Positions 12,439-63,985 of a stretch of DNA of 64,000 nucleotides are shown here, one piece after another. Below the pieces are notes generated by a model. That model was not told the origin of the DNA and made no database searches. It saw nothing but the letters and a program-made list of their open reading frames with translations. The position numbers and the translations under genes were made by a program. The stretch is from Balanoglossus misakiensis (taxonomy: Eukaryota > Animalia > Hemichordata). The first letter of the stretch is position 1. Every line of letters begins with the position of its first letter. The stretch spans positions 1,860,001 through 1,924,000 of the forward strand of contig CM082598.2 of assembly GCA_040954595.2 (NCBI GenBank). The letters run 5' to 3'.

Positions 12439-12495
12439 ATGCAGTGGCAAACTACCTTACTTAACACCTTGGCGACATTTGCGTTACTATGGGCG
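12439..12495 (+). CDS. Signal-peptide exon (exon 1) of the FN3-array gene
   Basis: ATG at 12439, 19 codons with a hydrophobic core (LLNTLATFALLWA), and a consensus donor gtaagt at 12496. Its phase matches the acceptor at 22707, and VTHC|QE is a plausible cleavage site. It is too short to appear in the ORF track. Confidence 0.8.
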
Positions 12496-15400: not shown

Positions 15401-18400
15401 ATCAACGCCTGGCTGTGTACCGAGGTGGCTGATGTTGCCGTCCATTCGTAGTTTAATTTGATTTATTTGCATGGCATTTGCATGCGCGTATCACGTCTCC
15501 TTGCTCTGCAAAATAGTCGAGATTTTCTGCAAAGGATTCCAGTTTTTTGTTGTATTACTCAAGGAATTGGTTTACGAATGGTCTATGCTTGTCCTGCTGT
15601 GGTCAGAAATTGATGTTCTTTGCTTTTGACAAGGCATTTGGGCCGAATTTTAGTGAACTTCGGTAAGCCATTCACTACTGCTGATAGCGGTTACGTAATT
15701 TGGTGTGGGATCGTGACGTGGCCACTTGTGGTGACTCAGTATGCCTCTGACCTGCGAGGACTGCGGAGAGTGCTCTTCGAGAGTTAGTCTGTGCCAAGGA
15801 GATATGCATCTGTGTAATACTTGCAACAAGAAACGATTTGGTGGCAGTAACGGCTCTACAGCGGATGGAGGAAGTGGACGAAGTAGAATAAGCGACAGTG
15901 GTGTGGTAATTAACGAACTTTTATGTTTTATTGTGAATAAGATGGATGTTCTTACAACAGACCTGCTGGTGAAGTTGTGTTGCGACCAATTTAACGATGG
16001 AGAAGTCGAGACTGCAAAGCGTACTCTTTTTGAACTATGTTGCAATGACCCTGGGAGGATGATAAAACGTCAGGGGCAGAATAAACGATTCAACAATTTG
16101 ATGGATATGGTGAAATTACTCCACGAAGTTGACATTGAAGACCTGCCATGCTTCGTTGCTAAAGATTTGGCAAAACTCCCGCCAATTGATACGTCTCACA
16201 TCGACGTCTCCACATTGATGACAGAACTGAAGTCACTAAGGCGAGAAATGGCACAAATGAAAGACACTGTGGTGCGGTCCGAGGTGACCGATTTTGCAAG
16301 TGAACTCAGTTTGTTGCGGCAAGAAATTTGTGAAGTGAAAAATTGCGTCGATAATTTGCAGAAAGGAGGTGTTGAAAGCGACGTGGTTTCACAGGTGGCA
16401 CAATGTGAGCCGCCAAGACCAGCTGTTTGTGAGCCACTGGATCCCCATTGTTCTCTGAACAAAGACCCTCATACGAGCTCGTATGCAGACATAGTTCAAT
16501 CACGTGTATCAGCGGTGAAAGCCAAGCGTCCAGTTCAGTCGGACCGTCCATCGACAAAGGTATCTGAAATCCAGTCGGGGAATGGAGAAGAAGAGTTTAC
16601 TGTGGTGTCTCGCCGACCTAAACGTCGTCCTCAGGCAGTTTTTGGCACAGCAAAACTCAGTGATGATTCTGCTATCAAATCTGTTCGCCCTAATCCGCCT
16701 TTTAAATTTTTTGTCACTAGATTTGCACCCACAACGACTTCAGATGCTGTTATTTCTTATATTAAAAAACGCAGTCATGTTACCGTTAAATGCGAACAAC
16801 TGAAAACCAAATATGATACTTATTCATCATTTGTGGTTGAAACGACACGTGAGTTCGCCGAGAAAATTCGTGACCCTGCGATGTGGCCTGATGGTATTCT
16901 TATCCGCCGTTACTATTAATTTATTGTATGACACTACGTCTTTCTACATATAACTGTCGTGGCATAAAGTCATCAGTAGACTCTATTATGTCTCTCTGTA
17001 ACGATCATGATGTTATACTCGTTCAAGAACACTGGCTGACGGAAGCGGAACTACCTCTTCTGTCGAGTATTCACAAAGACTTTAATGCATGTGGTATTTC
17101 TGCCATTCAAGATGACTGTGGAATTCGCATCGGGCGTCCATTTGGTGGAGTTGCAATCATGTGGCGTAAATCCTTGGGACAAAACTTTTCAATAAAATAT
17201 TTAGATGATACAAGACTTTTAGGTGCTGATATTGTTACATCTTCTGGAAAACTTTTTATTTTATGTGCGTACCTCCCGACCTGTTCTGGAGAAAATTATG
17301 ACACTTATATGAATTATTTGGCAAAAATTAATTGCATTATTAATGATATTGACACAACGAATGTTATAATTCTTGGCGATTTTAACGCTAACTTTGGTAC
17401 AATATTTGCTAGGGAGCTTGATATTTTTTGTAAAGAACATAATTTGTATATCTCCGATGTTGAAAAGCTTGGTAGATGCAATGATAATTTTACATTCGTT
17501 AGTGATGCACATGGTAGTACTGGTTGGTTGGACCATATTTTGAGCACCCATGCAGTACATAATGCTATTTCTAGTATTGGTATTTTGTATGATTATGTGT
17601 CCTCTGACCATTTTCCTCTTTCTGTAAATATTGATATTGTTGGGTTAGTACATACAGATCCGATTCCACAAAATGTTACCAATGCTCATGCGAAGCCTAA
17701 CTGGAGTAAAGCGACACCCAGGAACTTGTCTGCTTATGAACATATGACGGAGTGCTTACTCCGTAGACTGGATATCCCAAATGTTGCTCTTGTATGTCGA
17801 GATCCTAACTGTAAGAATATAGATCACATTAGCAGTCTAAATTCTTTGTATTCGAATATTGTTACTTCTCTTAAATCAGCTGCGTTGAACTGCATTCCTG
17901 CTTCGAAGGCAGAGGGGTTGGGTTTTAAAACTGTTCCAGGTTGGAATGAACATGTACGTGATTTTCACAATGCCGCTCGTGATGCATTTAAATTATGGGC
18001 TGCTAATGGCAGGCCTAGGTTTGGCCCGCTCTTTGATCTCATGCGCAGAACTCGTGCAAAATTTAAGTCGGTTTTACGGGCGTGTAGAAGAGATGAAAAC
18101 CTAGCCAGGGCCCAGGCTTTGGCCAAAAACTTGACGCAGGGGGGCACACGTAAGTTTTGGCAGTCTGTACATACCACTCGTGGTTGTTTATCTTCGCTTC
18201 CGACCAGTGTAGGTGGCTGCACCGGTCATGAAAATGTTGCCGATATGTGGAAACAACATTATGAAAGTTTATTGAATTCTGTTTCGAACTGTCGTGATAG
18301 AGCATTTGTATTGTCATCGTTAAATGAAACTGGTTCCCACAACAATGCCATGGTTGTTACTGCGATGGAACTAAAAGGGTGTATTGATAAGCTTGAGAAG

Positions 18401-21400
18401 GGAAAGGCATTGGGCTATGATGGTCTTGGTGCCGAACATCTCATGTATGCAAGTCCAATCATTTGCGTTATGTTGAGTTTATGTTTTACTAGTTTTTTTA
18501 CACATGGTTATTTACCCGAGACTTTAATGCACGCCATTATTTGTCCTATTGTGAAGGATAAATCCAAAGATCTTACTTCTGTGGATAATTATAGGCCCAT
18601 TGCAATTGTCACGGCCATCTCGAAAGTTCTGGAACTTTGTATTCTATCTCGTATTGATTCACTCTTAGATACAAGCAATTTACAGTTTGGTTTTAAAAGT
18701 AATCACTCTACCGACATGTGTATCTTTGTTCTCAAAGAAATTGTTGACTTTTATAAGAGGCATAATACGCCAGTTTACCTCTGTTTTATGGATGCTACGA
18801 AAGCTTTTGATAGGGTCAACCACTGGACTTTGTTTAGAAAACTGATTAACTGCAAGATACCTCTTTTTATTATTCGTATTTTACAATATTGGTATAGTAA
18901 TCAATGCTTTTCTGTGCGCTGGGCATCTGTAATTTCTAATTCCTTCAGTGTTATCAACGGTGTACGGCAAGGAAGTATTCTTTCACCCAAACTGTTCGCT
19001 ATATATGTAAATGATTTAAGCGGTCAGCTGCAATCAGCCGGGGTTGGCTGTTTCCTAGCTAATACCATTGTTAACCATTTGTTCTATGCAGACGATTTAG
19101 TCTTGATTTGTCCGTCGGTCAAAGCATTACAGAAACTGAGTAACATTTGTGAACTGTATGGAAATGAGCATGATATTATTTTTCATACTGCAAAGACAGA
19201 GTGTATGGCAATTTTCCCAAAGTCTTGGAAAGCACACAGAATTCCTTGTGTATATTTGTATGGTAAACCTCTTAAGTATGTATGTACAAAAAAGTATCTT
19301 GGCTATATTATGTCCTCTTCGGGTATGGATGATGCTGATATGCAGCGGCAGCTTCGTTGCTTTTATGCTAGAGCTAATTTTATTTTGCGTAATTTTGGCC
19401 ATTGCTCATATAAGGTGAAGTGCACTCTTTTTAAAAGTTTTTTATATAGTGTTTATTGTCTTAACGTGTGGTGTAACTACAGTGTCAAACAAATGTCTAC
19501 TTTAAAAGTTGCGTATAACAATGCCTTAAGATTGATTTTTAATCTGAAACGCGATGTAAGCATAAGTCATAACTTTGTAAGTAGGAATATTTTGAACTTT
19601 ACCTCGCTACATCGAAAATTGGTTTTCTCCTTTTGCCAACGCTTACAAAAAAGCGGTAACCCGGTTATCCGCAGTTGTATACAGACTGACTGTTACTTTT
19701 TATCTACATTCTGGGGGCATTGCAGGGTTGTTCTTCATTAAGTTTTTGGGATTTTTTTTTTCTTTTGTGTCTTTCTTTTATGGAGTTGTTTCTGGGTTTG
19801 TTTTGTATGTTTTTTTTTACAGTATGGGCATACCGCCTGAATTAAAGAATAAATAAAATAAAAAATAATAAAATTATATGGTAGATTAAACATTGTGAAC
19901 TGAATTTTCCGCGGTCAACAGATCCAACAGGTAACTGTAGAGGGGAAAAGGGAATTAGTACAATTGGTTTCAGTTGAGATGAAGTCTTTTATAGCAACAA
20001 AGTTAGCTGCAGGTACTTGCCCCTTGCCTTGTTCAGCCTTGTTGAGAGTGTACAACAAAAGGCTTTGTAGCCAGCAAAGGGCTGTGAACCGAATATAACA
20101 CTTCAAACAGACCCACCAGCTTATAGCTTGTCGGAGAAAAGAAACCATCAGTCAACTGGTTTTAATAGTTTGACACAAGTACATATACTTAGGCCCCTTC
20201 ACTTCAACATACGTTGGATGTGTGTTCTCGCAACTTCTCTTTGCCTAACCCTTTTCACCACAATAAATTGAAAGAGGTGAAAGAGGTGCTAAATTTGTTA
20301 ACCCAGGCTACCTGTGGGTTCGCCCAGAGCTGACCGAGATACAAACTTTGTTCTGATCTGTTCTGTACATCCCTAAATGTTAATAATCAGGGCAGACCAG
20401 AGAAGGTATTTGCAGTATGTGCAATGTTGGTATTTTTCATGCATGAAGTCCTTTACTGGCAAAATAAGTAAACCTTGTTGGTATAAAAGAATTTATCGAC
20501 GATTTGCTATGCATGCCTAACTTCTTTGTATTTGTCGGAGTGGTTACTTTGTCGTGATCACGAAACAAGGATGACGTAGTCTTACTTGGCATTCACCAGG
20601 CCTTGACCTTGGTTTTTAGTCCTTATTTTGTGTGTGATTAAACTTGAATCTTTTTTCTACTCTCAATTGCAGTCCTTGATGTAATGCATTGTGGGTACCC
20701 CAGCTGGATGTTGACTGGGCCCCCATCAACAACCCCAACCCCGTGACACACGCAAAAATCCCTTAAAGTTGCCTTGAGCATGAATTAATGTACTATAATC
20801 TATAAGTTAAAAATGTAATTAGGTGAATAGTGTACCCACATATCGAATCAGAATGTTATCACTCTAGGGTAAATTTGCTTTTAATTTCATCTCATGCAAA
20901 GCCAACAATAACATTAGCGTATAATTCAATTTGTCAATAACGTTATCAACTAAAAGAGAAAGCCAACAAGCCATTGACCAAAATGGTCTGAATTTGTAGA
21001 GTGTGTACGAGTTGTGTCATTAAAGTCCCACTATACTCATTATTTTCCTTTTAAACTGAGATTTGTCCATTAAAGGGACAAAGTCTCGCTGCGAGAGAGA
21101 GACTTTGTCCCTTTAAAAATGGGTACTGATGGAAAGCAGTTATAAAATAAACAGGAGCTGCATCTGTTTATTTAGCCTCCCATTATAAGGATTCAAATTT
21201 GCACTTGGTATTAGACTCTCCAGTAAATCAGTGTGGAGTTGACACTTCTCTCATTTGAGGATATGCGGGTTCACTTGAGGTCAAACGTCACCTACACCAA
21301 TGTGTGTATGTCTTATTTTGGACTTAAATGATGCACATAAAAATCCATTCTATACAGTTGCACACTTACTATGTTGTCTTAATATGTGTGAGCTAAATGA

Positions 21401-24400
21401 AAGTCCCACTAGAATACCAAACAAAAATTAAATGCCAACAGTGTACATTTTGTAGAAATGTTGCAACAAAAATTTCTCATAAATTTCTGTTGTTTGAACT
21501 CTCAGTTTGCCCTTCCGAACAAATAACACAGATTTTGGGAGTTTCCTTTTTATCCGATCTGGGTGGAGTGGGTTGAGTGAAGTGTTCAATTCACGGCATT
21601 GTGTCTGCGAAAACATCAGATTATCTTTCTATTGTACCTTTCATTCAGCGACTAAAGATCCCACAAAGGGCGTTTCCATATGGCATAACATCGCCAAACG
21701 GATCTTTTTGTAGATACCTGTTGGATGTCTGACAACAGTGAATGGTGTTGGCCCACAGGTCAATACAGCACAAATATAATACTGTGCTACTGTAAAACCA
21801 GTCTAAACCGAACACCAAAGGGACTGAAGAAATCGTTTGGTTTGTAGAGCTGTTCGGTTTAAAGAGGTTCAATGTCAAAGGGCAATGTGAGAGACTTTTA
21901 ATTCTATTCTGTTTTTGCTGGAATGTCAATTGAAAGGTTAAAAATGCTAATCATGCTAATGACAATATTCTGTACATCTTGCTGGAAGTTTTTTGCCAAT
22001 GATGAGTAACATATATTTGCACGAAACTCGTAGCAGGTATGCAGATTAACTGATAAGAAAAGCCAAAATGGTTCCATAATTTTTGTTAGTATATACTGAG
22101 TAGATTTTTCGGTGCAAATTTTAAAACATTCAGCTCATGACCTACGGGCCTGGTGTGTTAGAAATCAGTTCATTCATGTTTGGAATGCGCTTGTGTGCTG
22201 TCTTTTTGTTTGCCGCGATTTGCATGTGAAACGTTTCGCATTCAGAGCGCATAGACCCATCCAGAGTCACAAAAGACAAACTTGATTGATTACGAGAGTA
22301 GTGAATCACAGAGTCTATTTTGGACAAGGTATTCGGCCACTCCTAAAAACTCAACTTGTCGCTATCGTCCCTTGATGCACTTTTCACTAATCAACAATAG
22401 TTGGGATGTTGAGTTTTGTTCTTTTCACAACTTTTTACATAACAGAAGACCTCTTTCTGTGTCAATCTTTCCCTTTGTAAACAGCAGATATTAAAACACA
22501 AATCGCTGACAACAATGTCCAGTGTTATGCATGAGTTAAATCATGGCCTGCCTCAGTTGAAGCTGGCCTACATGACCAAGCGATTATAATGCCTGCACAT
22601 GATACAAGCTTAAACAATTAGTAACATAAAATAAATAATTGAACAGAAATTAATTGTGACCATCACAGAGAAATGAAAATGTGACCATTTCTTTTCATTT
22701 GTACAGGTAACTCATTGTCAGGAGACGGTGGAAAACCTTGCTTCCTCAGAAGTCACTTCATCATCTGCCAAATTGACATGGGATCCCCCAACGAGTGGCA
22801 CAGTCTCCCAATACTATATACTCATCGCTCCGAACAGACTCGTAGGTAATTCTTTCGAAACCACGACCAATACAGAGTTAACCATCACAGGTCTGCAAGG
22901 TGGTACAGACTATACTTTTACCGTGAAAGTACAGTTTGCCGGAACAGGTTTTGCAGATGTGGACGTATCTGTGAATGTGACTACAGTTAGTGATTCAGGT
23001 AAGAGATTTATAAGATTTCTAGAGAATGTTTGCTTTGAATGCTTGTTACTTCTTCGGATATCTATAGAATGTTTTGGATATCTATAGAATGTAGCATACG
23101 TATCTGTAAATGTGACTACACTGAGTGATTCAGGTAAGAGATTTAAGATTTGTAGAGAATGTTTGCTTTGAATGCTTGTTACTTCTGTGGATATCTATAG
23201 AATGTAGCATGAATTCTGCAAAATCAACAGAAATGCATGATGAGGGAGTGAAAGTTTGAAGGAGCCAAAAATTTATAAAAGGATGCAAATTGTAAGATTT
23301 TGCTACTGTGGTACATGTAGTTAGAATCTTGCAAATAATATCAACAAATGTTTGTGTTAAAGCCTTCAGTATCACCTTATCAAAATACTGATTTGATGGA
23401 AAAATTTTGGCTTCTTCTGCTGAAGGGAGTTTTCTACACTTGCCATCGTCACATTGACTTGTGCCTAACCTAACCCATCAATGACCATGCACATTTATCA
23501 CTGAAATCATCACATGCCTAATCTCTGCACGTACATATCCATCAATTCACCGCACAACTCTGGGTTGAAAAAATAAATAAATCCACTCCGCAATTTCTTA
23601 CACTCACTGCCAGTTCATTAAGTGTTGTGAGTCTCAAGGAATTGGTGGGAAAAAGTTCGTTTCTGCCCTCAGTAAGATTGTGGGAAATTTATTCACAGCG
23701 ATAAAAATTATTGCTGTCATTCAAATAGTTGTATAAAAGATAACCCATCAATCAGGGACAAGTATGAAGCAATTGGTCATTTGATAGCCAATCAGTGACA
23801 AGTATAAACTAACCAATCATTGGATAGCCAATCAGTGATGAGTATTGTATCAACCTATCAGAGCTGATACTTCAAGGGTTTTCACAACACACTGTTTTTG
23901 TGATATGCAAAACAATCTATTATTTTAAATGAGAGTACTAGATATTTTGTGAAAGCCTCTGAGAGAGATTTTTCAACCCAATCCCTGCTTTGCTGCACTG
24001 CTAACTTGAACCGCACTGCTTTTGTACCATAAAACATTTGCTTGCTTGTTTGCATTTTTGCATGTGCACTGCTTCCGTGGTCATCAGTAAAGGTTGAGGG
24101 GATATTTTGGGCTATTCTGGAGCAATGGAAATAGCATTCCCTAATATAATTGTTTGCAAAACTGCAACCTTGTGGCTATATACAACTTCTGCACTGATTT
24201 CTGCACTGTGTTCCTAATCAAATAACAAAAACCAAAACAATAAAACGTTTTCTGTTGTTCGTGTTGTCATAATTTCGAATTTTGCTTCTCCAAAGGAAAT
24301 AATATCCAGGTGGACACAAAAACCACAAATCTGTTGATCTTAAGCTGGACAGAGCCGGGTGGTACCGTCTTTAATTATGAGCTGACGTATCAGACAGGTT

Positions 24401-32814: not shown

Positions 32815-32847
<33 letters not shown>

Positions 32848-53800: not shown

Positions 53801-56800
53801 GTAAACTGTCAAATTATGTTGTGTGTACTGTAAAGATATGTCTTATTTTCTGTATCAACCTGGACACATTATGAATTACATTTCTATGTATTTTTTATAC
53901 AGCTATCATCGTACCAGGCACAATCATATTTAATTCTGTAACCTTCGACATGATCGACATCACATGGGGAGGTGTTGATGAAGGCACTGGATACTTCATC
54001 TCGCTGTCACCGGCTGACGATGGAAACACGTATCCAACCTTCCTCATCAGGACAACCACAGATTACACTTTCACTGGATTGACTGCTGGCAAAGAGTATA
54101 CAATAACCGTTGATTATACGGATGCACAGTATGAAGATGCTGAAGCTACAGTGAGGACAAGTAAGGACATCAAATTTATCTGCATACATGTACAGTCAGA
54201 CATGTCCAAACTGAACCCTATTTTATCTGGACACCTGTCTATACCGAACACCTTTTCCCACCCATTTGAGTTTGACATAGAAGCACATGTTAAAATAATC
54301 TCTATGTATATTAAAACAACTCTTAACTGAAATACACCCAAACATTTCTGAGTAAAAAATATTATTTAAATGTCAATGTTTAATTTCATCTTAATATTTT
54401 TTGTCAGATCCAAGATCACCTGGAGCGATAACAATCACTGATACAACACCGACTGAGGTAGCCTTCAGTTGGGTGGCCGCTGCAGGAGACTTTGCAAACT
54501 ATGAGATTTCCTACACACCTGATGGTGGTCTGACTGTGCCAGTGGATGTCGTGGAGTCCACAGTGACCTCGTATAGGATTAGTGAATTGAGTCCAAGTAT
54601 GATGTACACTGTAGCAGTGGCGACCACCGTGGGAACTGGAGTGAACTTGCTCAGAAGTGCTCCAAGCACACAGGCTGTCACAACAAGTAAGTTTGATTGG
54701 TTTTTGACGTTAACCAGTAGAAGTAGTGACTGCGTAGTTGTGCCTAATGATCATGATAAAGCCACTGTTGATTTTATCATAACCTGCCAGGCCTTTGACT
54801 GTTCACATCGCTGCCAAAAAGTGCATGATAATGTGCTTTTGGCAAATCACCTGCTCAAACTCTCCTGGATAATTGCAATTTTCACCACAATAAAATTCTG
54901 GAAAATATCTTATTTTTTGCAGCTGCTATTCCGGAAGGTCAAATTGAAGTACACGAAGTCACCACGACCAGCATTCGCATTCTGTGGGGAGTCACGGCCA
55001 ATGAGAGCGCACTAGGCTATCTGCTGGATATTGAACCTTCTGATGGAGGAAGCTATCCTCGTGTTGAGCAGTTGGATCGGTCAGAATACACTTTCCGTGG
55101 TTTAGTCCCTGGCAGGGAATACACCATCAGTTTGACTGTATCTGGTTTGGCGGAAGTTGATGATGAAATCATTCAAGCTACGGGTGAGTACAAGAACTAG
55201 TGTCATGCAAAATCCAACCATCTCTTGGATCTTCAAAAATGACAAAATCTGGAATAAAATTGAATTTGAAAATTGACTGACCCATCACTTGGAATCTGCT
55301 GCTTCACATAGTACCAGCCATATACAAAAACGTTGAATGGTTTATACTATAAATCGAACATACACTCTCTTGCAGAACCCAATCCCCCTAGTACTTTTGA
55401 AGTGAAGAGTTTCACACCAACCACAATCACAGTGGAATGGACTGCACCTGTGGGCGAAGTCAGTTCCTATGTGTTATCCTACACTGACCCTGACGGTCAG
55501 CTGACCACGGCCGACACCATTCCCAGTAGCGTGACAGAGTATGAATTCACTGGTTTAGAGCCTTCCACTGTTTACACGTTCAAGATCAAGTCCAAGGTGG
55601 TGTCTGACAACAACGATGTGTACAGCGAAGAGAGGACTGTTGTTCAAAGTACAAGTAAGTAACTGTACAATTGGTCAGCCTTGCAAAAGACATTCTGTAA
55701 GCATCCATAGCATTCTTTAGAAATTTATAGAACTTCTATGGAAATCCATAGATTTCTATTTACACCTAAAGCAATTGGAAATATGAAGTGCACATCTTAC
55801 AGTGCTGGGTTGGATTTGCATACATTGCATAGCGGTATAGACTTTTGAAAATCCTGAAGTCTCTCAGCAGGATGACTTAATATGTAAATTTCTGAGTAAA
55901 CATTATCCTATTGACAACTTCCAGCAATAATACCACCTGGCGACATCATAGTCGGTGAAGTGACCACATCCAGTGTCAGCCTTCTCTGGGGAGCCAGCAC
56001 AGATGAGCAGGTCACAGGATATCTCCTCACCATCACACCATCAAGTGGTGGAGACATCGTCTTCCTGCAAAAGGAAGTTATCCGGTACACATATGAAGAC
56101 CTAGTTCCCGGACGCGAATACACCATCAAAGTACAGTTGGCTGGTCCAAACACGTTTTCTGAAGTTGTGGTCAGAACGAGTAAGTATTTTTTAGAATTTA
56201 TATATTTTACCACAGAACTTTATTGAAAACAGTTTTTAAGCATCTGTCTATCCAGCCAGAATTTTCAAAGATGTAAACAAAACAACAATTTCTTACCAAT
56301 TTTTAAACTTTCCAGGACCGATGTCTCCCGGACTTATAACCGTGGACACACAGGAAGAAACATCCCTGGATATTTCCTGGCTGGCCGCAGATGGTGATTT
56401 CAGTGTCTACGAAATAACCATTGAATATCCAGACAGCACCATCAGTGGTCTTGGCGTTGTTAACAAGGACAGCCCAAGGACGTTCCATATTGAAAATCTG
56501 CGACCAGGCACATCGTATGTTATCCGAATCGCGACTAGATTTGGAACACCAGGAGATTACGTCAGAAGTGAACCATCGGAGCTAACAACTTCTACGAGTA
56601 GGTTCTGTTTACGATCTGAAATACAGAAACACAAAAAAGATACAAGCACAATACACTATACACATCCTGAGTTTCAAGTACATAGATTCATGAGAGCAGG
56701 AATTTGTACTTCAATGCAATTTTCTTTCTTATTCTCACAGCCACAATACCACCAGGAGATATTGTCGTGGTTGACGTGACTACAGACAGTATTACGATCC

Positions 56801-59800
56801 TCTGGGGTGCCACTGACAACGAGCAGGCCAACGGCTACATTCTCCTCCTGACACCTGCAGAAGGCGGTTCATACCCCACCTACCTGCCACTGGACACTAT
56901 CACGTACACTTTCCCTGGTTTGACGCCGGGAAGGGACTATGCCATTACTGTACAGATAGCCGGACCTAACATCGGCCGAACTATCAACCAGCAAACAAGT
57001 AAGTTCATTCACTGAACAAGGCAGCTTTTACACAAAAGTTTCGCCTGTTGATTGTGCTGAGACCAATGGGAGGATATGACTTCCATAAGAAAGTACACAG
57101 TATTACACACTCATCTAATTTTTCAATTTCATTTGTACACATGTACATATGTGTGGAAAACTGATTATTTCTGCTGTGCAGACAACACGTGAGAATATGG
57201 TAACATTCTGTCCATCACATTATTTTCTATTCTTTAATTCATTTTCCATTTTGCAGAACCAAATCCACCAGGTTTTGTTGCCGTGACGTCGAAGACCCCA
57301 ACTTCTTTGAGCATCATCTGGCAGGCATCGATTGGTGAATTTGACGTTTATGAGATTTTCTACTCTGAGATCGGACGGGAGCGAATGTCGTACGCAATGG
57401 TGGATGGTGATGAGGAGACAGTCGCGACTATCAGGAATCTGATACCGAACACCGAGTATCTCATTGAAGTTGTTTCCAAGAGTGGGACTCAGAATAGTGA
57501 CTTTTCATCTGTGCAAGACACCACAGGTATGTACGCTGGTAATATATAGTTTTCCACACAATGTGAGATCTCGTGAGACTTGGTTTAATACCACAGCAAC
57601 AGGTTGCTAGCCAAGTAATACAAGTCAAGCTTTGTGTGAAACTAGAATACATGTACAGTAAACAAAAGTGACAACTTTTGTACTGTTGAACACGATGGGT
57701 CATGTGTTAATTGCTTGTCCTGTATCACATGAGAATGCCCTCCCATATAAATTGCCTAGAAACGTGAGATCTCGCAGGATCTTGTGAAGTTCTCAAAATG
57801 GTCTATTGATGGAAATCTCACTTTTTTGCAGAAATCATTCCAACTTCGCAGATTGCTTTGGTGGCAGTGACAACTGACGAGATATCCATCATGTGGGGAG
57901 GTGCCCATCCAGATACTGGCGCAACTGGCTACCTCTTGTCTATTAACCCATCACCAAGTGGACCAACTTTTGTCCCACTCAGCACCATCGAATACAGCTT
58001 CACAGGTCTGGAACCAGGTGTTCTCTACTCCATCACACTTGACGTACTAAGTGCTGACTTCAGAGGCAACTTCACTCAAAGAACAGGTACGTATACCCCC
58101 CCCCCCCCTGTGCCTCTTGTAATTGTCAAAAATTAAACCTGTTTTAATGTTTCCGCTGTTTTTCTCAAATTACAATTGAGATCTGAAGACAATGGAAATT
58201 TATGTCCACTTGGTCTAAAATAAAGGAGAAAAATGGATTAAAATGTTAAAATGATGAACCACATTTTGACAGTGAGAGAAAGTTTTAAGGAAATGCGCCT
58301 TTTGTGCATAAAATGAATATGTTCTTATGCAGTTGTATTGATTGCATCTCATTAATTTTTTTCAGAGCCCCTCGCACCAGTGTTAGTGCTAGATTTAGAG
58401 AAGACAGAAACCTCAATACAAATTGTCATAGACGTCCCAGCCACAGGTACCTTTGACAGATATGAAATATTCTATGGACGAGACCCGAATGAAGCCATCT
58501 ATTCGGGATCAATACCTTCATCTTCTGCCAATCTGGAGTATACTATTACTGGACTGGATCCTGATACAGAGTATGATATCCGAGTTCGGACTTCATCTGG
58601 AAGTGGTGATGATGTCATGACAAGCAGTGTGTTCTCCCTTACCGCTTCAACAGGTAAACATTGTTTATGTTGTTGTGTTGTGTTTTTCTGTCTTTGTTGT
58701 TTGTCGTGATAGTGCATGATGATGATGAACATGATGATAATGATGAAACTGATGGTGGTGATATCAAACCGACTAATTTTCATCTGTTTCTTCGCAAACT
58801 TCCAGTCGCTTTGGGAGCTGCAAACATCGTGGTCATCGACGTAACAACCACTTCCATCAACATCGTCTGGGGACCAAGCGATGACGGCGATGGCTACTTT
58901 GCCATTGCTGCTGCGGCGGGTGAGACACCCAAGTATGCCAGCGTGCCACAAGGAGGCTCCCCAAAGCACACATTCACTGACTTAACACCTGGTACAGTGT
59001 ATGCCATCACAGTACAGGTGACAGGAACAGCGGTGTCAAACTCTATCAGCCAGAGAACAAGTAAGTCCCTGTTGAAGGTTCAGACACTTTGCGAAGTTTT
59101 GATGTAATCATTAATAGTCTCTGTGTAAAGGAATGACATTCAGCCACTTTAACCCAGTTATGTAGACTAAGATGAATTCAATGGATCTCTCCCTCACACA
59201 GGACCTGAAGCACCATCAACAATTGCTGTGCTGGACGACCAGACAACAACAACAAGTATCACTGTCGTCTGGGGTCCACCAATCGGGGACTTCGACAACT
59301 ACGAAGTGACGTACACCGACCCAGAAGACGTGGAACATCTGGTTGAGGTTGTCGCCAAGGACATCGTCCAGTCGACGATCGAGGGACTGGCCCATTCCAC
59401 TACCTACACTGTTTCCGTGGTGACAAAGATCGGCTCTGGTGAAAACGAGATCAGGAGTACACCAATCTCTGTCCAAGTCTCCACTGGTAAGCTATAAATC
59501 CTGCAAGATACTTTTGTATGTGTTTACAAAGTCAGGAGAGACTAAATCTTGATGGGTTTTTTTGTACCATCTATGCATACATGCAGTTATGTGCATTGGA
59601 GCTAATTAATTTACATGTTTAACAGTAGACCTGTGGATAACTTGTTATTTGTAATGTTGAAAATCATTCAAAAAATGTCTTTGACATACATGTAAATGCA
59701 CTATTGCATGTGACTATCTCAGCCTAGTTAAACCATCAATTTCTTTCTCAACCTACAGCTGCCATCCAACCAGGAGAAATCATTGTACGGGAAGTCACCA

Positions 59801-62800
59801 CCACCCGGATTTCAATCCAGTGGGGTCCCGCTGCCATTCCGACAGTTGGTTACCTGGTCACACATGATGAAAATGAAACTCCGATCTTCACGTCAGGGAC
59901 TGAATTCATATTCTCAAATCTTGTGCCAGGCGAGGAATATGAAATCTCTGTCACACCGATAGCAGACAACAACCTGCGAACAAGTATTCTACAGCGAACT
60001 AGTAAGTTGAACAGTATCTGTGCTTATACAATTTGGCCTTTCATAAATACAGCTCGCTAGAAACTGTGAACATTATCAACTTGAAAACAGTCTTAGAAGA
60101 CATACAGCGACGAAGTGTTCATAATTTTTTTTCATGTTTTTTCTCCAACAGAACCTGTCAGTCCAGGCGCGGTCAGCGTTGTTCCAAACGACATCACACC
60201 CACAGCCATCCCAATTTCGTGGGTTGCCGCGGATGGTGTCGTCGAGGGATACAGAGTTTCCTACGTCGCCGAGGACAACACAGAAACTGTGTTCGACACT
60301 GTGGCACCCGACGTGCTGTCTGTTACCATGACTGGATTGCAACCAGGAGAAACCTATGAAATAAGAGTCGTCACGGTTGTGGATGGAGTGACCAGCGAAC
60401 CTTCAACAACTGAAGTCTCAACCAGTAATGTCACATACTTCTCTTACAAGAATTCTATACCATTCTATGTTTTTTTGTCATTTCAAAACATGCAATATAA
60501 TTCTATAGCATTCCATAGATTTTGTCATTTCTATAGAATTGCATCTCCTGAGGGAAATCACCACTTATTTTACATGCATCATCAATATGCGTAAATACCA
60601 TTTTCTTCTGGGAATTCCAAACTGAAATGATGCTGTATTTTCAAAATGTGGATTTAAAATTCATGGAAGTAAACTTGTCTTCTTCTTTTCTAAACAGCTG
60701 CTTTGCAACCAGTCGAAATTGCCATCATTGAATTTGACTCTACGTCCATCTCGATAACTTGGGGGCCAACTGACGAGCCATTGGCTGAAAATTACGTCAT
60801 CATCGCGACATCATTTGGTACGGACACCAGGGCGGTGACGCAGGCGGTTGGAGAAACAACTCTGTATGAATTCACCGACCTGATCCCTGGACGGCTGTAC
60901 ACTATTACTGTACAAGTCACCAACAATGAGGGCAACCTTGATGAACAGTCCATCACACAGCGAACTGGTGAGTTTCATTTATATACCCTGCCTTCACGAT
61001 AGTATGGTCTGATTCTGTGCTTCATGTCCTGTATTTGGGCCTCACAACTATAGATTTTGGGGGTGTGAGGTTCAGCTAGGAACTGAATACGAGTCAGATG
61101 CCAAGCGGATGATACGAGATGTGAAAATTCTCTCTCATCTATTTTTTATGATTGACTTTTGTTGTTGCTGTGTTAAACCTCCAGTACCCCTGCCAGTGGA
61201 GATCATCATCTTCTTGTCAGCGACATCAACTAGTATCAATCTGGCCTGGGATCCACCATCCACCAGTTATTACGATGGATTTGAAGTCTATTACTCCACG
61301 GGAGGTGACCCCCCAGCACTTGCTGCAACTCTCGGACAAGACGATGTCACGTACAATGTGGAAAGATTGAGCGAGGCGACAACGTATAGGGTAGATATTG
61401 TCACTATTGCTGGAAGTGGCACTGATCTTTTGAAGAGTTCTCCCAGAAGTACTCAACAGTCTACATGTAAGTTTCTATCACTTAGAAGTCCATTGGCGGT
61501 AGATCAAAGTGGTGTTATGAATTCTTCTTCAATTGATCTAGCTTACTGTGCGGACCAATTCTACTAAGTGCCATGGAACATATATTTTTCTTGGATTCTG
61601 GCACTTTTTAAATAATGTATGATTGATTGATTGATTGATTGACTGATTGACTGACTGACTGACTAACTGACTGACTGACTGACTGACTGATTGGTTGATT
61701 GATTGATTGATTGATCTGAAAAATCTGAATCTCCAATGAATGCAAAATTTCACTGTATAAAGCTTATCCTGGACTCCTTTATTTATTACCAAATATTTTT
61801 CTCCTTACAGTAACAACTATATTACGCGTGATTACATCCACAAGTAACTTCATCTTTGTGCAATGGATAGAGCAGACATTGAACTTCGAGTATTACACTT
61901 TGACTTATGAACCTGGTAACGGTTCCCCGCCATCCCCGATTACCAACATCCCGCCCAGTCAGCTGACTCAGAACATCGTGGGTCTTATGCCGGGCGAGGA
62001 ATACACTTTGACGCTGTCCGTCTTCAATAATGGTGTTGCCACCAGTTTGGACTCTGTGAAACGAAGAACGGGTAAGCCGAATGATATTATTGCTTACTGG
62101 TGAATGAAGAATATTAAGGCTCGTCTTATGTTTATTTGTGTATCTACTACAGTTTCATGATAGCTTATCAACACAGCCTATATGTGTATAGTCAACATTG
62201 TTATTATTAAAAATTTGAATTTGAAATGTAAAATAAACAGTGTGATGCTTTTAGCAGAATTCAAGCAACACAAGTTTCTGGTTGAGATTCTAATAAAAAT
62301 TTATTAAAGTTCTTGAGCTTTGTTCATCTTCAAGTCTCATAATTATTTTCACCTGTGTTTTTGCAGATCCACTGTCACCAGGACCAGTGACTGTTGAAGA
62401 CTTTGGCGCCGACTTCATTGAAGTCAGCTGGGCAGACCCCAGCAGCGAAACGCTGTTTGATCACTACGAAATCACGTACACCCCTGCAGGTGGCAGGACC
62501 CCCCAGCCCCTGCTGAGACCCAGAGTCCTTGACAACAGGGTGAGACTCGAAGGCCTGAATCCAAGTGAGCTGTACACCGTTAGTATCGTCACGGTGAGCG
62601 GTGACAGCGAGTCGGAGAAGAAGAGCACAGTGCCTTCCAGGGCAACGCAGTTGACAGGTAATCGAACTCAAAACCATTCACACTAGTGCTACTACAATCA
62701 GTACTGATATAAAGATCCCTATTTAACGATATTACCATGTCTTACTGCTGTTATTACCACTAGCCTTACATAAAATATTCTATAGATCTTTATAGCATTC

Positions 62801-63985
62801 TATTAATTTTAACACAGTCTGCTATAGAATTCAATAGAAAACTTGTAGAAAACTTCTTTAAATATCTATAGATATTAATAGACATTTTAGAAACTTCACT
62901 AGAAATTCTGTATGAAATTCTATAGATATCTATAGAAAGTTTTTTGTCAGGTTACCACGTCTCTGTCTTTTGAATTCTATAGCATAGTAAACATGTTTGC
63001 TTTTGTATGTTTTAATTCTCAGTTGTGTTATTTTACTTGCTTTTGTAGCTCCTGGAAACGAAGGACAAATCATAGTAAAAGAAGTAACCCACGACACCAT
63101 CCGTATTACTTGGGTACGCGTCAATACAGCAACTTCATACACGGTTGCTCACGGTTTGACGGGCGGGACGGAGACCTCCAGCAACACTGGTGCATTGGAA
63201 ATGACCTTTGAGCAACTGCTTGCTGGAAGAGAATACGCAATCAGTGTTACTAGTAACACTGGTGTTGTCAACAACATCGTTCAAGTTACAAGTAAGTTAT
63301 AAATTTATTAGTTGTAAACTAGAGTTTGACAGCGCTCTATTTGGTACAAAGGCATAAGCTTTCAAAGACATGTATAAGTCTCCTTCATCAGATGCAAGGA
63401 CTACTAACCTTCTGCATGTATCTGATGAAGGAGACAACATGTCTTTGAAAGCTCATGTCTTTGCACCAATTAGTTGAGCTGTCAAACTCTAGTATATGTT
63501 GTATTGAAGATCAGCACGACTGCACTACTATTTGTTAATTGTGACTAAAGTTAAAACTATTTGAAAGTGTTTCTGAGTTGAGATGCTTCAGTGGTATTTT
63601 CAGATGCAATGAAGATGGTATTTCTATTTTATGAGTGCATGAGGAGAAACATCTAAAGATTGTTCAGTGAATAATCATTGCTTGCTACCTTAATTTTCAG
63701 TTCCCTATGCTCCGGAGAATGTAGCAGTGCAGTTCGTCACATCTCGTATCATCCGCCTGGAATGGAGTCCTGTCACCCAGGGCAACTTTGATGCCTATGA
63801 AGTGACGTATTACCCGACCAATGGACAAACAGAGTCGCCCACCTACGTCGTTCCACAGGGAAATCCAGAAACTTCGCTGGAGGGTCTAATGCCAGAGACA
63901 GAGTACACCATATTTGTAGCAACAGTCAGCGGTAGCAGTGGAAACCAAGTCCGCAGTGAAGCCACCATGTTGACAGCAACGACAG
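12439..63985 (+). CDS. Giant secreted or cell-surface fibronectin type III tandem-array protein (signal peptide plus at least 71 FN3 domains, about 6,450 aa in window; 3' end beyond window). Repeats resemble R3 receptor tyrosine phosphatase (PTPRB/Ptp10D-like) or tenascin-type FN3
   Basis: Exon 1 at 12439-12495 (MQWQTTLLNTLATFALLWA|gtaagt) splices in phase 0 to 22707 (VTHCQETVENL...), completing a signal peptide. FN3 exons, all GT-AG with phase-1 3' ends and no stops: 22707-22998, 24296-24547, 25182-25460, 25758-26012, 26410-26676, 27088-27339, 27665-27946, 28281-28541, 28734-29009, 29419-29667, 29840-30121, 30338-30598, 31027-31317, 31689-31949, 32304-32588, 32963-33232, 33566-33847, 34092-34355, 34661-34939, 35299-35568, 35808-36083, 36551-36832, 37143-37430, 37629-37898, 38086-38367, 38534-38803, 39198-39467, 40435-40680, 41005-41301, 41669-41944, 42269-42559, 42935-43213, 43562-43846, 44299-44571, 44848-45120, 45502-45765, 46129-46410, 46719-46979, 47241-47513, 47711-47971, 48201-48473, 48608-48865, 49098-49385, 49590-49856, 50014-50295, 50518-50778, 51019-51300, 51516-51779, 52132-52410, 52796-53068, 53485-53766, 53903-54160, 54408-54686, 54923-55183, 55376-55654, 55925-56179, 56316-56597, 56741-56998, 57257-57526, 57832-58086, 58366-58653, 58806-59060, 59202-59486, 59759-60001, 60152-60424, 60698-60967, 61185-61466, 61811-62071, 62367-62657, 63049-63291, 63701-63985. 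Nearly every exon shows the FN3 hallmarks: a strand-B Trp (Phe in a few), a strand-C Tyr, and the L.P.T/G.Y tyrosine corner. Confidence 0.92.
15229..15306. mobile_element. Short palindromic MITE-like element
   Basis: agtctagaatccagacttgtatttttcgct ... agcgaaaaacacgggtctgggttatagact form imperfect 30-bp inverted arms. Confidence 0.5.
15741..16919 (+). CDS. LINE ORF1 (nucleic-acid-binding, Gag-like) protein, 392 aa
   Basis: It has an N-terminal CxxC...CxxC (CEDC...CNTC), a conserved-looking INELLCFIVNKMD block, and a coiled-coil (LMTELKSLRREMAQMK). The C-terminal RRM-like domain FFVTRFAP...YSSFVV...WPDGILIRRY is typical of CR1/L2-group ORF1. Confidence 0.8.
   Translation: MPLTCEDCGECSSRVSLCQGDMHLCNTCNKKRFGGSNGSTADGGSGRSRISDSGVVINELLCFIVNKMDVLTTDLLVKLCCDQFNDGEVETAKRTLFELCCNDPGRMIKRQGQNKRFNNLMDMVKLLHEVDIEDLPCFVAKDLAKLPPIDTSHIDVSTLMTELKSLRREMAQMKDTVVRSEVTDFASELSLLRQEICEVKNCVDNLQKGGVESDVVSQVAQCEPPRPAVCEPLDPHCSLNKDPHTSSYADIVQSRVSAVKAKRPVQSDRPSTKVSEIQSGNGEEEFTVVSRRPKRRPQAVFGTAKLSDDSAIKSVRPNPPFKFFVTRFAPTTTSDAVISYIKKRSHVTVKCEQLKTKYDTYSSFVVETTREFAEKIRDPAMWPDGILIRRYY
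16928..19741 (+). CDS. LINE ORF2: apurinic-like endonuclease plus reverse transcriptase, 937 aa
   Basis: APE motifs: TYNCRG, VQEHWL, GGVAI, ILGDFNA, LDHIL, SDHFPL. RT motifs: NYRPIA, QFGFK, DATKAFDRV, GVRQGSILSP, HLFYADDLVL, KYLG. No stops or frameshifts. Confidence 0.96.
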   Translation: MTLRLSTYNCRGIKSSVDSIMSLCNDHDVILVQEHWLTEAELPLLSSIHKDFNACGISAIQDDCGIRIGRPFGGVAIMWRKSLGQNFSIKYLDDTRLLGADIVTSSGKLFILCAYLPTCSGENYDTYMNYLAKINCIINDIDTTNVIILGDFNANFGTIFARELDIFCKEHNLYISDVEKLGRCNDNFTFVSDAHGSTGWLDHILSTHAVHNAISSIGILYDYVSSDHFPLSVNIDIVGLVHTDPIPQNVTNAHAKPNWSKATPRNLSAYEHMTECLLRRLDIPNVALVCRDPNCKNIDHISSLNSLYSNIVTSLKSAALNCIPASKAEGLGFKTVPGWNEHVRDFHNAARDAFKLWAANGRPRFGPLFDLMRRTRAKFKSVLRACRRDENLARAQALAKNLTQGGTRKFWQSVHTTRGCLSSLPTSVGGCTGHENVADMWKQHYESLLNSVSNCRDRAFVLSSLNETGSHNNAMVVTAMELKGCIDKLEKGKALGYDGLGAEHLMYASPIICVMLSLCFTSFFTHGYLPETLMHAIICPIVKDKSKDLTSVDNYRPIAIVTAISKVLELCILSRIDSLLDTSNLQFGFKSNHSTDMCIFVLKEIVDFYKRHNTPVYLCFMDATKAFDRVNHWTLFRKLINCKIPLFIIRILQYWYSNQCFSVRWASVISNSFSVINGVRQGSILSPKLFAIYVNDLSGQLQSAGVGCFLANTIVNHLFYADDLVLICPSVKALQKLSNICELYGNEHDIIFHTAKTECMAIFPKSWKAHRIPCVYLYGKPLKYVCTKKYLGYIMSSSGMDDADMQRQLRCFYARANFILRNFGHCSYKVKCTLFKSFLYSVYCLNVWCNYSVKQMSTLKVAYNNALRLIFNLKRDVSISHNFVSRNILNFTSLHRKLVFSFCQRLQKSGNPVIRSCIQTDCYFLSTFWGHCRVVLH
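21074..21112. mobile_element. 39-bp internally deleted derivative of the 36139-36484 MITE family
   Basis: ttaa|agggacaaagtctc-gctgcgagaga-gagactttgtccct|ttaa: perfect 14-bp inverted ends matching the longer copy. Confidence 0.65.
22964..23210 (+). repeat. Tandem duplication of the end of FN3 exon 2, its splice donor and adjacent intron
   Basis: cgtatctgtgaatgtgactacagttagtgattcag|gtaagagattt... is repeated at about 23099 as cgtatctgtaaatgtgactacactgagtgattcag|gtaagagattt... Confidence 0.85.
25511..25640. repeat. About 31-bp minisatellite carrying tagccaatc (4 units); similar ccaatca repeats at about 23745-23860
   Basis: tagccaatcatagtgccagagag / tagccaatcattgcaacagagaa / tagccaatcgttgcatcagaaag / tagccaatcattgcgtcagagaa. 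Confidence 0.7.
27432..27616. mobile_element. MITE with TTAA flanks (Kolobok-like); related copies at 4588-4766 and 35043-35225
   Basis: ttaa|aggtatacggtcacct ... aggtgactgtatacct|ttaa. The copies share the internal motif ccaatcac(a/g)gattttcagtgg. TTAA flanks with RR..YY termini are the known Kolobok pattern. Confidence 0.7.
30652..30730. mobile_element. Short palindromic MITE; second copy at 45863-45940
   Basis: gggccatcccaagca...ggggtcttatgg-(gagcgcgatacttatga)-ccataagacccc...tgcttgggatggccc. A near-identical sequence lies in another intron. Confidence 0.65.
31339..31504. repeat. Dispersed intronic repeat rich in TCTATAGA palindromes with ccttacaaa/tttgtaagg-like ends; relatives near 30864-30958, 38815-39000, 41345-41520, 55680-55760, 60445-60555, 62764-62985
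   Basis: Repeated (t/a)tctatag(a/c) units lie between short inverted ends in many introns. Confidence 0.55.
31986..32164. mobile_element. Tc1/mariner-pogo type MITE
   Basis: TA|CAGTCAAACCT ... AGTTCGACTG|TA with internal (a/t)agtggccac repeats. TA duplication with CAGT ends is the pogo/Tigger pattern. Confidence 0.65.
32630..32882. repeat. (TATG)n microsatellite interrupted by the hammerhead-bearing insert
   Basis: tatgtatg runs at about 32632-32661 and 32753-32882 flank a non-repetitive segment of about 90 bp. Confidence 0.9.
32671..32717 (+). ncRNA. Type I hammerhead ribozyme motif in an intron of the FN3 gene
   Basis: TCTC-CTGATGA-GTGAGTC(CAGT)GACTCAC-GAAA-CAACGTTG-TA^GAGA. The core CUGAUGA/GAAA is complete, stem II is a perfect 7 bp, stem III is the palindrome ACAACGTTGT, the cleavage triplet is GUA (32711-32713), and stem I is TCTC/GAGA. 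Confidence 0.85.
35043..35225. mobile_element. Copy of the Kolobok-like MITE
   Basis: ttaa|aggtgtactgtcacct ... aggtgactttatacct. It is colinear with 27432-27616. Confidence 0.65.
36139..36484. mobile_element. Fold-back MITE with TTAA flanks and about 125-bp imperfect terminal inverted repeats (second Kolobok-like family)
   Basis: ttaa|agagacaaagtctctctc ... gagagagaccttgtccct|ttaa. Inner arms are acatgtggatatatagtgaat...aacttccatccc / gggatggaagtt...attcactatatatccacatgt. Confidence 0.7.
39684..40355. mobile_element. Non-autonomous DNA element with a terminal 144-bp hairpin plus a split 13-bp inverted repeat
   Basis: 39684-39827 folds on itself (aggggttattacacggattttggtcgataacgcg / cgcgttatcgaccaaaatccgtgtaataacccct). 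ttatcatacatgc (39828-39840) is the reverse complement of gcatgtatgataa (40343-40355). An internal direct repeat gtgtaataccgtaaaatatc occurs twice. Confidence 0.7.
45139..45481. repeat. Near-perfect 171-bp tandem duplication inside intron 45121-45501
   Basis: ttctctttatagatctccgaatgacattc...ccatggtgataa starts at 45139 and again at 45310. One mismatch was seen (gttcttttgc vs gttgttttgc). Confidence 0.9.
45863..45940. mobile_element. Second copy of the short palindromic MITE
   Basis: gggccatcctaag...ggggtcttatgggagtgcgatacttatgaccataagaccc...cttgggatggcc. Confidence 0.65.
46455..46620. repeat. Compound tetranucleotide microsatellite (GATT/GGTT/GACT)n
   Basis: Direct reading: gattgattggttggttg...gactgactgactga. 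Confidence 0.9.
61618..61714. repeat. Compound tetranucleotide microsatellite (GATT/GACT)n
   Basis: Direct reading: gattgattgattg...gactgactgact...gattgattga. Confidence 0.9.
63318..63493. mobile_element. Inverted-repeat element made of two oppositely oriented minimal hammerhead motifs; likely Penelope-like or retrozyme-derived
   Basis: The arms actagagtttgacagc...tccttcatcagat and atctgatgaaggagac...gctgtcaaactctagt are near reverse complements. Each reads CTGATGA-A-GGAGAC...GTCTTT-GAAA-GC-T(C/T)-ATG on its own strand. Confidence 0.7.

Follow-up and report, generated by a model that had tools for sequence, protein, structure and literature searches.

The window, a 64,000-nucleotide stretch of the Balanoglossus misakiensis genome, contains a signal-peptide exon followed by 71 consecutive fibronectin type III (FN3) exons. 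Together they probably account for the first two-thirds, from the N-terminus, of a receptor tyrosine phosphatase of the R3 group, PTPRB-like and single-pass, with about 9,900 residues and about 102 FN3 domains, which may act by size sorting. The array is real, intact and ancient, and most likely forms the outer stalk of this giant phosphatase, an extreme, conserved and apparently undescribed variant of the known R3 family. The family, the fold and precedents of about half the size are already known; this gene is a natural extreme, with about six times the human repeat number, old, and with domain count and order kept across a 373-million-year split. At least six truncated public models are hereby linked into one gene that is absent from the 2017 R3 survey, and so extreme a stalk makes spacer, ruler or tether, and ligand-platform readings distinguishable by experiment.

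Organization of the gene in the window

FN3 exons were identified by an automatic search for AG...GT intervals with phase-1 ends, scored by their fit to the splice-site consensus at acceptor and donor and to an FN3 pattern, with three acceptors refined by hand. Between 22.7 kb and 63,985 the search yields exactly 71 FN3 exons, none of which overlaps another, and these are listed with the other features of the window:

75-2712, + strand: 3' part of a Cys-loop ligand-gated ion channel subunit gene (Neur_chan_LBD, Neur_chan_memb)
~5300-7211, - strand: small gene in head-to-head orientation to the FN3 gene, with what looks like a signal exon plus two exons encoding one Link (Xlink) domain each (E 2e-21, 2e-24)
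12439..12495, + strand: signal-peptide exon, 19 codons, A at -3, phase-0 GT donor; signal peptide judged by eye
15735..19880, + strand: non-LTR retroelement, a passenger in intron 1 and not part of the protein; ORF1 15735-16919, ORF2 16892-19741, A-rich tail
22707..22998, + strand: exon 1 (end of signal peptide and FN3 repeat 1), phase-0 acceptor at 22707, phase-1 donor
24296..26676, + strand: FN3 exons 2-5 (24296-24547, 25182-25460, 25758-26012, 26410-26676)
27088..45765, + strand: FN3 exons 6-36, given in the next four lines
Exons 6-13, + strand: 27088-27339, 27665-27946, 28281-28541, 28734-29009, 29419-29667, 29840-30121, 30338-30598, 31027-31317
Exons 14-21, + strand: 31689-31949, 32304-32588, 32963-33232, 33566-33847, 34092-34355, 34661-34939, 35299-35568, 35808-36083
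Exons 22-29, + strand: 36551-36832, 37143-37430, 37629-37898, 38086-38367, 38534-38803, 39198-39467, 40435-40680, 41005-41301
Exons 30-36, + strand: 41669-41944, 42269-42559, 42935-43213, 43562-43846, 44299-44571, 44848-45120, 45502-45765
46129..63985, + strand: FN3 exons 37-71, given in the next five lines
Exons 37-44, + strand: 46129-46410, 46719-46979, 47241-47513, 47711-47971, 48201-48473, 48608-48865, 49098-49385, 49590-49856
Exons 45-52, + strand: 50014-50295, 50518-50778, 51019-51300, 51516-51779, 52132-52410, 52796-53068, 53485-53766, 53903-54160
Exons 53-60, + strand: 54408-54686, 54923-55183, 55376-55654, 55925-56179, 56316-56597, 56741-56998, 57257-57526, 57832-58086
Exons 61-68, + strand: 58366-58653, 58806-59060, 59202-59486, 59759-60001, 60152-60424, 60698-60967, 61185-61466, 61811-62071
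Exons 69-71, + strand: 62367-62657, 63049-63291, 63701-63985; exon 71 ends on a GT donor and the gene is open at the window end

All 71 exons have AG acceptors (58 CAG, 10 TAG, 3 AAG) and GT donors (28 GTAAGT, 11 GTGAGT), and 70 are of phase 1:1, exon 1 being 0:1; the signal exon, with its phase-0 end, and exon 1 together give a plausible complete signal peptide as judged by eye. The spliced coding sequence of 19,348 nt translates to 6,449 residues with no stops, in agreement with the original prediction of a signal peptide, 71 consecutive FN3 exons and about 6,450 residues free of stops or frameshifts, with FN3 as the sole domain type in a gene still open at the window end. The product is acidic, Ser/Thr-rich and almost Cys-free, also as predicted (pI 4.07, Thr 13.7%, Ser 9.7%, 3 Cys), with 36 N-glycosylation sequons and no RGD, and its highest 19-residue hydropathy window (1.9) lies within the FN3 array. 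Repeats 39 (47241-47513) and 41 (48201-48473) have one Cys each, at the same place in Ptychodera and Glandiceps, and the remaining Cys is in the signal peptide.

The Pfam fn3 cut-off is passed by all four exons tested, and AlphaFold2 models one odd and one even repeat as seven-stranded sandwiches (pLDDT 97 and 95), the even-repeat model matching FN3 structures. None of the 71 domains has an internal intron. An exon-derived HMM run against all six frames of the window finds no further FN3 exons (5 of 77 matches lie outside the model, all at E of at least 0.16), and a tblastn search for hidden exons with nine relatives gives only two weak matches outside it (E 0.03 and 0.39).

The repeats alternate between two types (A/B, odd/even), the best paralogue being of the same parity for 69 of 71. 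The lag-2 minus lag-1 score is 40.6 vs 0.0 +/- 5.0 in shuffles, a value reached in none of 10,000, and odd and even exons average 281 and 262 nt, respectively. From this period-2 pattern we infer that the outer stalk grew long ago by duplication of a two-exon cassette; in the Glandiceps orthologue the alternation fades over the 30 domains nearest the membrane, where lag scores are 77-94 and show no parity. Pairwise identity among the 71 repeats averages 27% with a maximum of 51%, and the best local DNA alignment score for any exon pair is 17, so both a recent amplification and an assembly collapse are ruled out.

Three features of the introns and flanks are of separate note. The intron-1 retroelement lies on the same strand as the FN3 gene and is probably a recent insertion, intact-looking, with a 394-residue ORF1 that has no Pfam match, a 949-residue ORF2 with endonuclease and reverse transcriptase and no stops, and a tail with AATAAA; no clear target-site duplication was found around the insertion. 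A 110-bp tandem duplication (93% identical; 22963-23072 and 23098-23205) has copied the end of FN3 exon 1 and its GT donor into the intron. A 173-bp near-perfect tandem duplication (45139-45482) lies in the intron that separates repeats 35 and 36 and reaches the exon 36 acceptor.

Acorn-worm orthologues and the predicted C-terminal third

A profile search of 1.84 billion representatives with exon-by-exon comparison identified fragments in Saccoglossus kowalevskii, and a region search then identified Ptychodera flava XP_070577718.1 and Glandiceps talaboti XP_077999957.1. When proteins of 164-2,000 residues were searched by words with the even-repeat alignment, PTPRB and generic FN3 proteins came up but none of the acorn-worm fragments. 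All 65 Ptychodera domains are reciprocal best matches on one diagonal to repeats 6-70 (domains 1-31 to exons 6-36, domains 32-65 to repeats 37 to 70), at a mean identity of 69% (range 37-88%) vs 27.5% off the diagonal. Glandiceps domains 1-35 align with repeats 37-71 at 54% identity, with 34 of 35 reciprocal best; repeat 40 is not reciprocal, and there are two stray off-diagonal matches at 38-43%. In Saccoglossus the array is spread over XP_006815264.1 (19 of 19 domains collinear; repeats 11-23, 26 and 28-32), XP_006815249.2 (7 of 9 domains; repeats 50-56), XP_006815250.1 (14 domains on the diagonal; repeats 58-71) and XP_006815251.2 (12 domains on the diagonal; repeats 60-71). Judged by similarity, the window sequence is closer to Ptychodera than to Glandiceps or Saccoglossus. 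Among the matched acorn-worm models none corresponds to the signal exon and repeats 1-5.

There is no domain gain or loss relative to Ptychodera across 65 repeats or to Glandiceps across 35. Saccoglossus XP_006815264.1 is without repeats 24, 25 and 27, which is either a real loss or a prediction gap, and in XP_006815251.2 41 of 43 domains line up with those of Glandiceps, with a single step of one domain, likewise real or a prediction gap. On these alignments the repeat order is common to acorn-worm lineages that split about 370 million years ago (about 373 Ma for the harrimaniid/ptychoderid split; PMC4729200). At columns that vary among the paralogues (11% identity), orthologue identity is 55-65% in Ptychodera, 36-45% in Glandiceps and 38-50% in Saccoglossus (27 of its domains used); with gains and losses near none, this argues that sequence and position are constrained repeat by repeat. 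The original prediction of an old, maintained array is supported by repeat-for-repeat orthology with Saccoglossus.

Beyond the orthologue of repeat 71 (aa 3,177), Glandiceps XP_077999957.1 continues with 30 more HMM-called FN3 domains, one additional divergent FN3-like stretch recognized by eye, a PTP_tm juxtamembrane domain, an RRKR motif, one helix (at 6,177, hydropathy 3.5) and one PTP domain, with PF18861 and PF00102 precomputed for this model. Its KNRY, WPD, HCSAGVGRSG and Q loop motifs are all intact and there is one active-site motif. Saccoglossus XP_006815251.2 similarly has PTP_tm, a helix (hydropathy 3.2) and a partial PTP domain with three of the four motifs, including WPD, and one active-site motif; the shared PTP half is 83% identical to that of Glandiceps. 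Since both orthologues continue into a phosphatase, the window gene is most likely the N-terminal two-thirds of an R3 phosphatase, and we consider it very probable, judging from these orthologous sequences, that it too continues into about 30 FN3 domains, a juxtamembrane domain, a helix and a PTP domain. The projected protein is 6,449 + 3,430, or about 9,880 residues (about 9,900), with about 102 FN3 domains, so the array size of 71 first proposed is an underestimate. The original prediction noted R3-like motifs and offered two alternatives, a receptor or a secreted filament; the helix and PTP domain of the collinear orthologues in two other acorn worms favor the receptor, with a shed filament still allowed by the furin-type motif. 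Glandiceps sequence past aa 5990 has no match anywhere in the window.

All six matched public models are truncated automatic predictions that start without a signal, and the Ptychodera model stops just past repeat 70. No single model spans signal peptide to PTP among the acorn-worm models examined, and a PTP-region search with a sea-urchin query gave no hemichordate model of 4,072-12,959 residues among 8 matches of 299 candidates. The public models are split in all three species, the link from array to PTP in one transcript rests on overlapping predicted models, and human PTPRJ has a soluble splice form (PMC10815196); the array could on these grounds be two or more genes, or mostly secreted FN3-only isoforms, apart from the phosphatase. 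We regard this as very unlikely and favor one gene, because no internal stop or second signal exon was found within the array in the window, the array introns are short (134-1,297 nt, median 296; the first intron is 10.2 kb), AATAAA occurs in them at chance level (19 vs 18.8 +/- 4.4 in shuffles), and the model break points differ among species and are bridged by the models of other species. The Ptychodera (6-70) and Glandiceps (37-end) models overlap across 34 repeats and bridge array and phosphatase, and two Saccoglossus annotation versions split the gene differently.

Glandiceps also has a paralogue, XP_077984380.1, on another contig, in which the pair of repeats 55 and 56 recurs about 13 times, with repeat 57 added. 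A membrane helix comes next, then a long tail of low complexity that has no PTP motif, and the N-terminal region is different. Its repeats score higher against repeats 55/56 of the window than against those of the giant Glandiceps protein itself.

Relationship to R3 phosphatases and other long FN3 arrays

R3 phosphatases are considered to remove phosphate from receptor tyrosine kinases and to act in tubular organs, and their FN3 domains are mostly on single phase 1:1 exons (PMC5336234). The acorn-worm gene resembles R3 members (PTPRB/VE-PTP, PTPRJ, PTPRO, PTPRH, PTPRQ, Ptp10D) in its FN3-only ectodomain of one-domain phase 1:1 exons, and the window shows these ectodomain features, with a signal exon (by eye) and 71 FN3 domains that continue as FN3 only in the orthologue. 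The orthologues add a long juxtamembrane domain, one helix and one PTP domain, for which PTPRB is the best single-domain match; against single-domain PDB entries the Glandiceps domain scores 356 bits to PTPRB, 347 to Ptp10D, 338 to PTPRO, 314 to PTPRJ, 290 to PTPRH and 284 to PTPRQ, and two-domain LAR-type entries outrank PTPRB by summed score only (PTPRS first domain, 275). The number of FN3 domains differs, at about 102 (predicted) vs 8-18 in human R3 members (PMC10815196 Table 1), or about six times as many. Unlike PTPRB, the array has A/B alternation over its first 71 repeats, and PTPRB has no repeat-level collinearity with it (7 scattered reciprocal matches). The PTPRQ subgroup, which has a WPE loop and FN3 domains with internal introns (PMC5336234), is excluded by the WPD of both orthologues and the absence of internal introns from all 71 domains.

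Of 51 PTP domains found, 42 were kept in a tree after removal of near-duplicates, with the Patiria and Amphiura models omitted as their active-site pattern was unmatched. The acorn worms are placed beside the PTPRB clade with weak support (82/86) in this tree, where the Saccoglossus row, from a model without half the domain, contains non-homologous sequence. Antedon groups with the acorn worms in the 42-row tree (91/96) and not in a 15-row half-domain tree, which leaves the echinoderm placement ambiguous.

Five of the six matched models carry the names of other proteins, with Ptychodera called 'titin-like', Saccoglossus 'tenascin-' or 'fibronectin-like' and Glandiceps uncharacterized, and FN3 profiles match structures of fibronectin, tenascin and titin. 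We give virtually no weight to the reading of the gene as a homologue of any of these, as EGF, FN1/FN2, Ig and fibrinogen domains are all absent from both window and orthologues, a signal exon is present, and the orthologues end in a helix and PTP domain. A tenascin is expected to have EGF repeats and a fibrinogen domain, and only 3 Cys are found in the 6,449 residues; the original prediction that tenascin-type N-terminal EGF repeats are absent holds for both window and orthologues. Titin is cytoplasmic with Ig domains, and fibronectin has FN1/FN2 modules and RGD; both are rejected on the signal exon, the absence of RGD and of Cys-rich modules from the window product, and the absence of any named Ig or FN1/FN2 family from the orthologues. 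Such matches should not be counted as hemichordate tenascin or fibronectin.

Echinoderm R3 genes likewise have long, old arrays. They include the S. purpuratus 'SeaUrchin3' (FN3 numbered to 49; PMC5336234 supplement), Diadema setosum XP_072165291.1, Lytechinus pictus XP_063970020.1, Antedon XP_071943131/2.1 and Anneissia XP_033101451.1, with 40-69 FN3 domains called, followed by a helix and one PTP domain where the model extends far enough. These arrays have no repeat-level collinearity with that of the acorn worms, and their WPD loop is altered to WVD, WTD or WMD, whereas Glandiceps and Saccoglossus keep WPD. The crinoid Antedon models XP_071943132.1 and XP_071943131.1 are adjacent, with common sequence at the ends that face each other, and a single R3 gene of about 75 FN3 domains may have been split between them.

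FN3 arrays of great length also occur in the R3 expansions of amphibians and fish, and several of them have a period of two domains. Pseudophryne has 47 FN3 domains and Leptodactylus 46, both with a helix and a PTP domain that falls in a separate vertebrate clade, and FN3-only partial models of 58-85 domains with no PTP in the model are present in Xenopus, Pelodytes and Discoglossus. The longest frog arrays are young (lag-2 identity 0.74-0.87; 0.74-0.92 for the young two-domain amplifications in frog models), and no repeat-level collinearity with the acorn-worm array was found where this was tested. With about 102 predicted domains, the acorn-worm protein would have the longest R3 ectodomain among the models examined.

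Long R3 stalks are thus on record through the sea-urchin supplement entry (PMC5336234), which is apparently not taken up in the main text. That 2017 survey used two other Saccoglossus genes, and the accessions of the acorn-worm giant are absent from its eight text supplements. A tenascin survey (PMC11401434) concerns a different Saccoglossus protein, and the main text of a hemichordate single-cell paper (PMC13554239) contains no mention of PTPR, phosphatase, tenascin or fibronectin. Searches of the open-access literature recovered the R3 survey or unrelated papers and no description of the giant gene, and its one-to-one orthologues exist only as truncated automatic models, consistent with the earlier suggestion of an uncharacterized protein.

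Possible roles of the long stalk

The purpose of long R3 FN3 stalks is an open question according to a 2024 review (PMC10815196). Precedent comes from CD148, which is excluded by size from close contacts (PMC10815196), and from CD45RABC, which spans 40 nm (PMC6170634). By analogy, we put at about even the chance that the acidic, glycosylated stalk sets where the active phosphatase sits, by size sorting. It would be pushed out of close contacts and kept on open apical or luminal surfaces, where it could hold receptor and Src-family kinase signalling low; exclusion would act where membranes approach, as for CD148, on a much larger length scale.

An FN3 domain is about 3.3-3.5 nm long, and 102 of them would give a stalk of up to about 0.35 micrometre if fully extended; full extension is assumed in this length, and AlphaFold does not predict it for VE-PTP. 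The AlphaFold ectodomains of both VE-PTP and PTPRQ are partly twisted (PMC10815196). Size exclusion needs only tens of nanometres, and is not enough alone to account for about 100 domains or for their individual conservation. That so many domains are unneeded for exclusion is the main weakness of the size-sorting reading.

That domain count and order are conserved points to a need for a given length and register. A more speculative proposal, which we hold with considerable doubt, is a molecular ruler, a phosphatase of about 1.07 MDa kept for more than 370 million years with a stalk of about 102 domains, fixed in length and register and about a third of a micrometre long. If true, it would determine how thick an apical surface layer is or how it is spaced, whether between microvilli or cilia or over a filtration surface, and would couple this geometry or furin-dependent shedding to tyrosine dephosphorylation.

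The same giant receptor could instead use its stalk as a tether or ligand platform. Such a stalk would be a link of set length that joins microvilli, cilia or cells to one another or to apical matrix; single repeats would bind partners, and the phosphatase would signal attachment. PTPRQ is a hair-bundle link. Some R3 members bind ligands via the stalk, as with the ligands of CD148 and the binding of VE-cadherin by VE-PTP through one FN3 domain (PMC10815196). The nearly fixed domain count and order, the orthologue identity of 36-65% vs 11% among paralogues at variable columns, and the single Cys of repeats 39 and 41 conserved in three species are in keeping with such a role. There is, however, no RGD, and domain-specific conservation could also come from the folding constraints of each domain; we consider this role possible, if on the unlikely side.

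The length may also be a relic, in which a two-domain cassette was amplified early and its copies diverged until unequal crossing-over stopped, so that length persists unneeded and selection keeps each domain folded only. This would fit the period-2 pattern and the low DNA similarity among exons, and elsewhere R3 stalk length varies freely, with the young two-domain amplifications of the frog models (lag-2 identity 0.74-0.92) and the roughly 13-fold amplification of the 55-56 pair in the Glandiceps paralogue. Loss of a symmetric phase-1 exon leaves the reading frame intact, and still no indels are seen in 65 repeats relative to Ptychodera or 35 relative to Glandiceps and one among 43 Saccoglossus domains vs Glandiceps, counts whose weight depends on the neutral rate of such deletions. 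On balance a relic seems unlikely.

Under either the size-sorting or the ruler proposal, the stalk could be cut at the furin-type motif beside the membrane, and perhaps released. An R-x-K/R-R motif is found near the membrane in five of the eight models checked (Glandiceps, Saccoglossus, Antedon, Anneissia and Branchiostoma), and its presence in Glandiceps and Saccoglossus distinguishes them from the bat PTPRB model, where it is absent.
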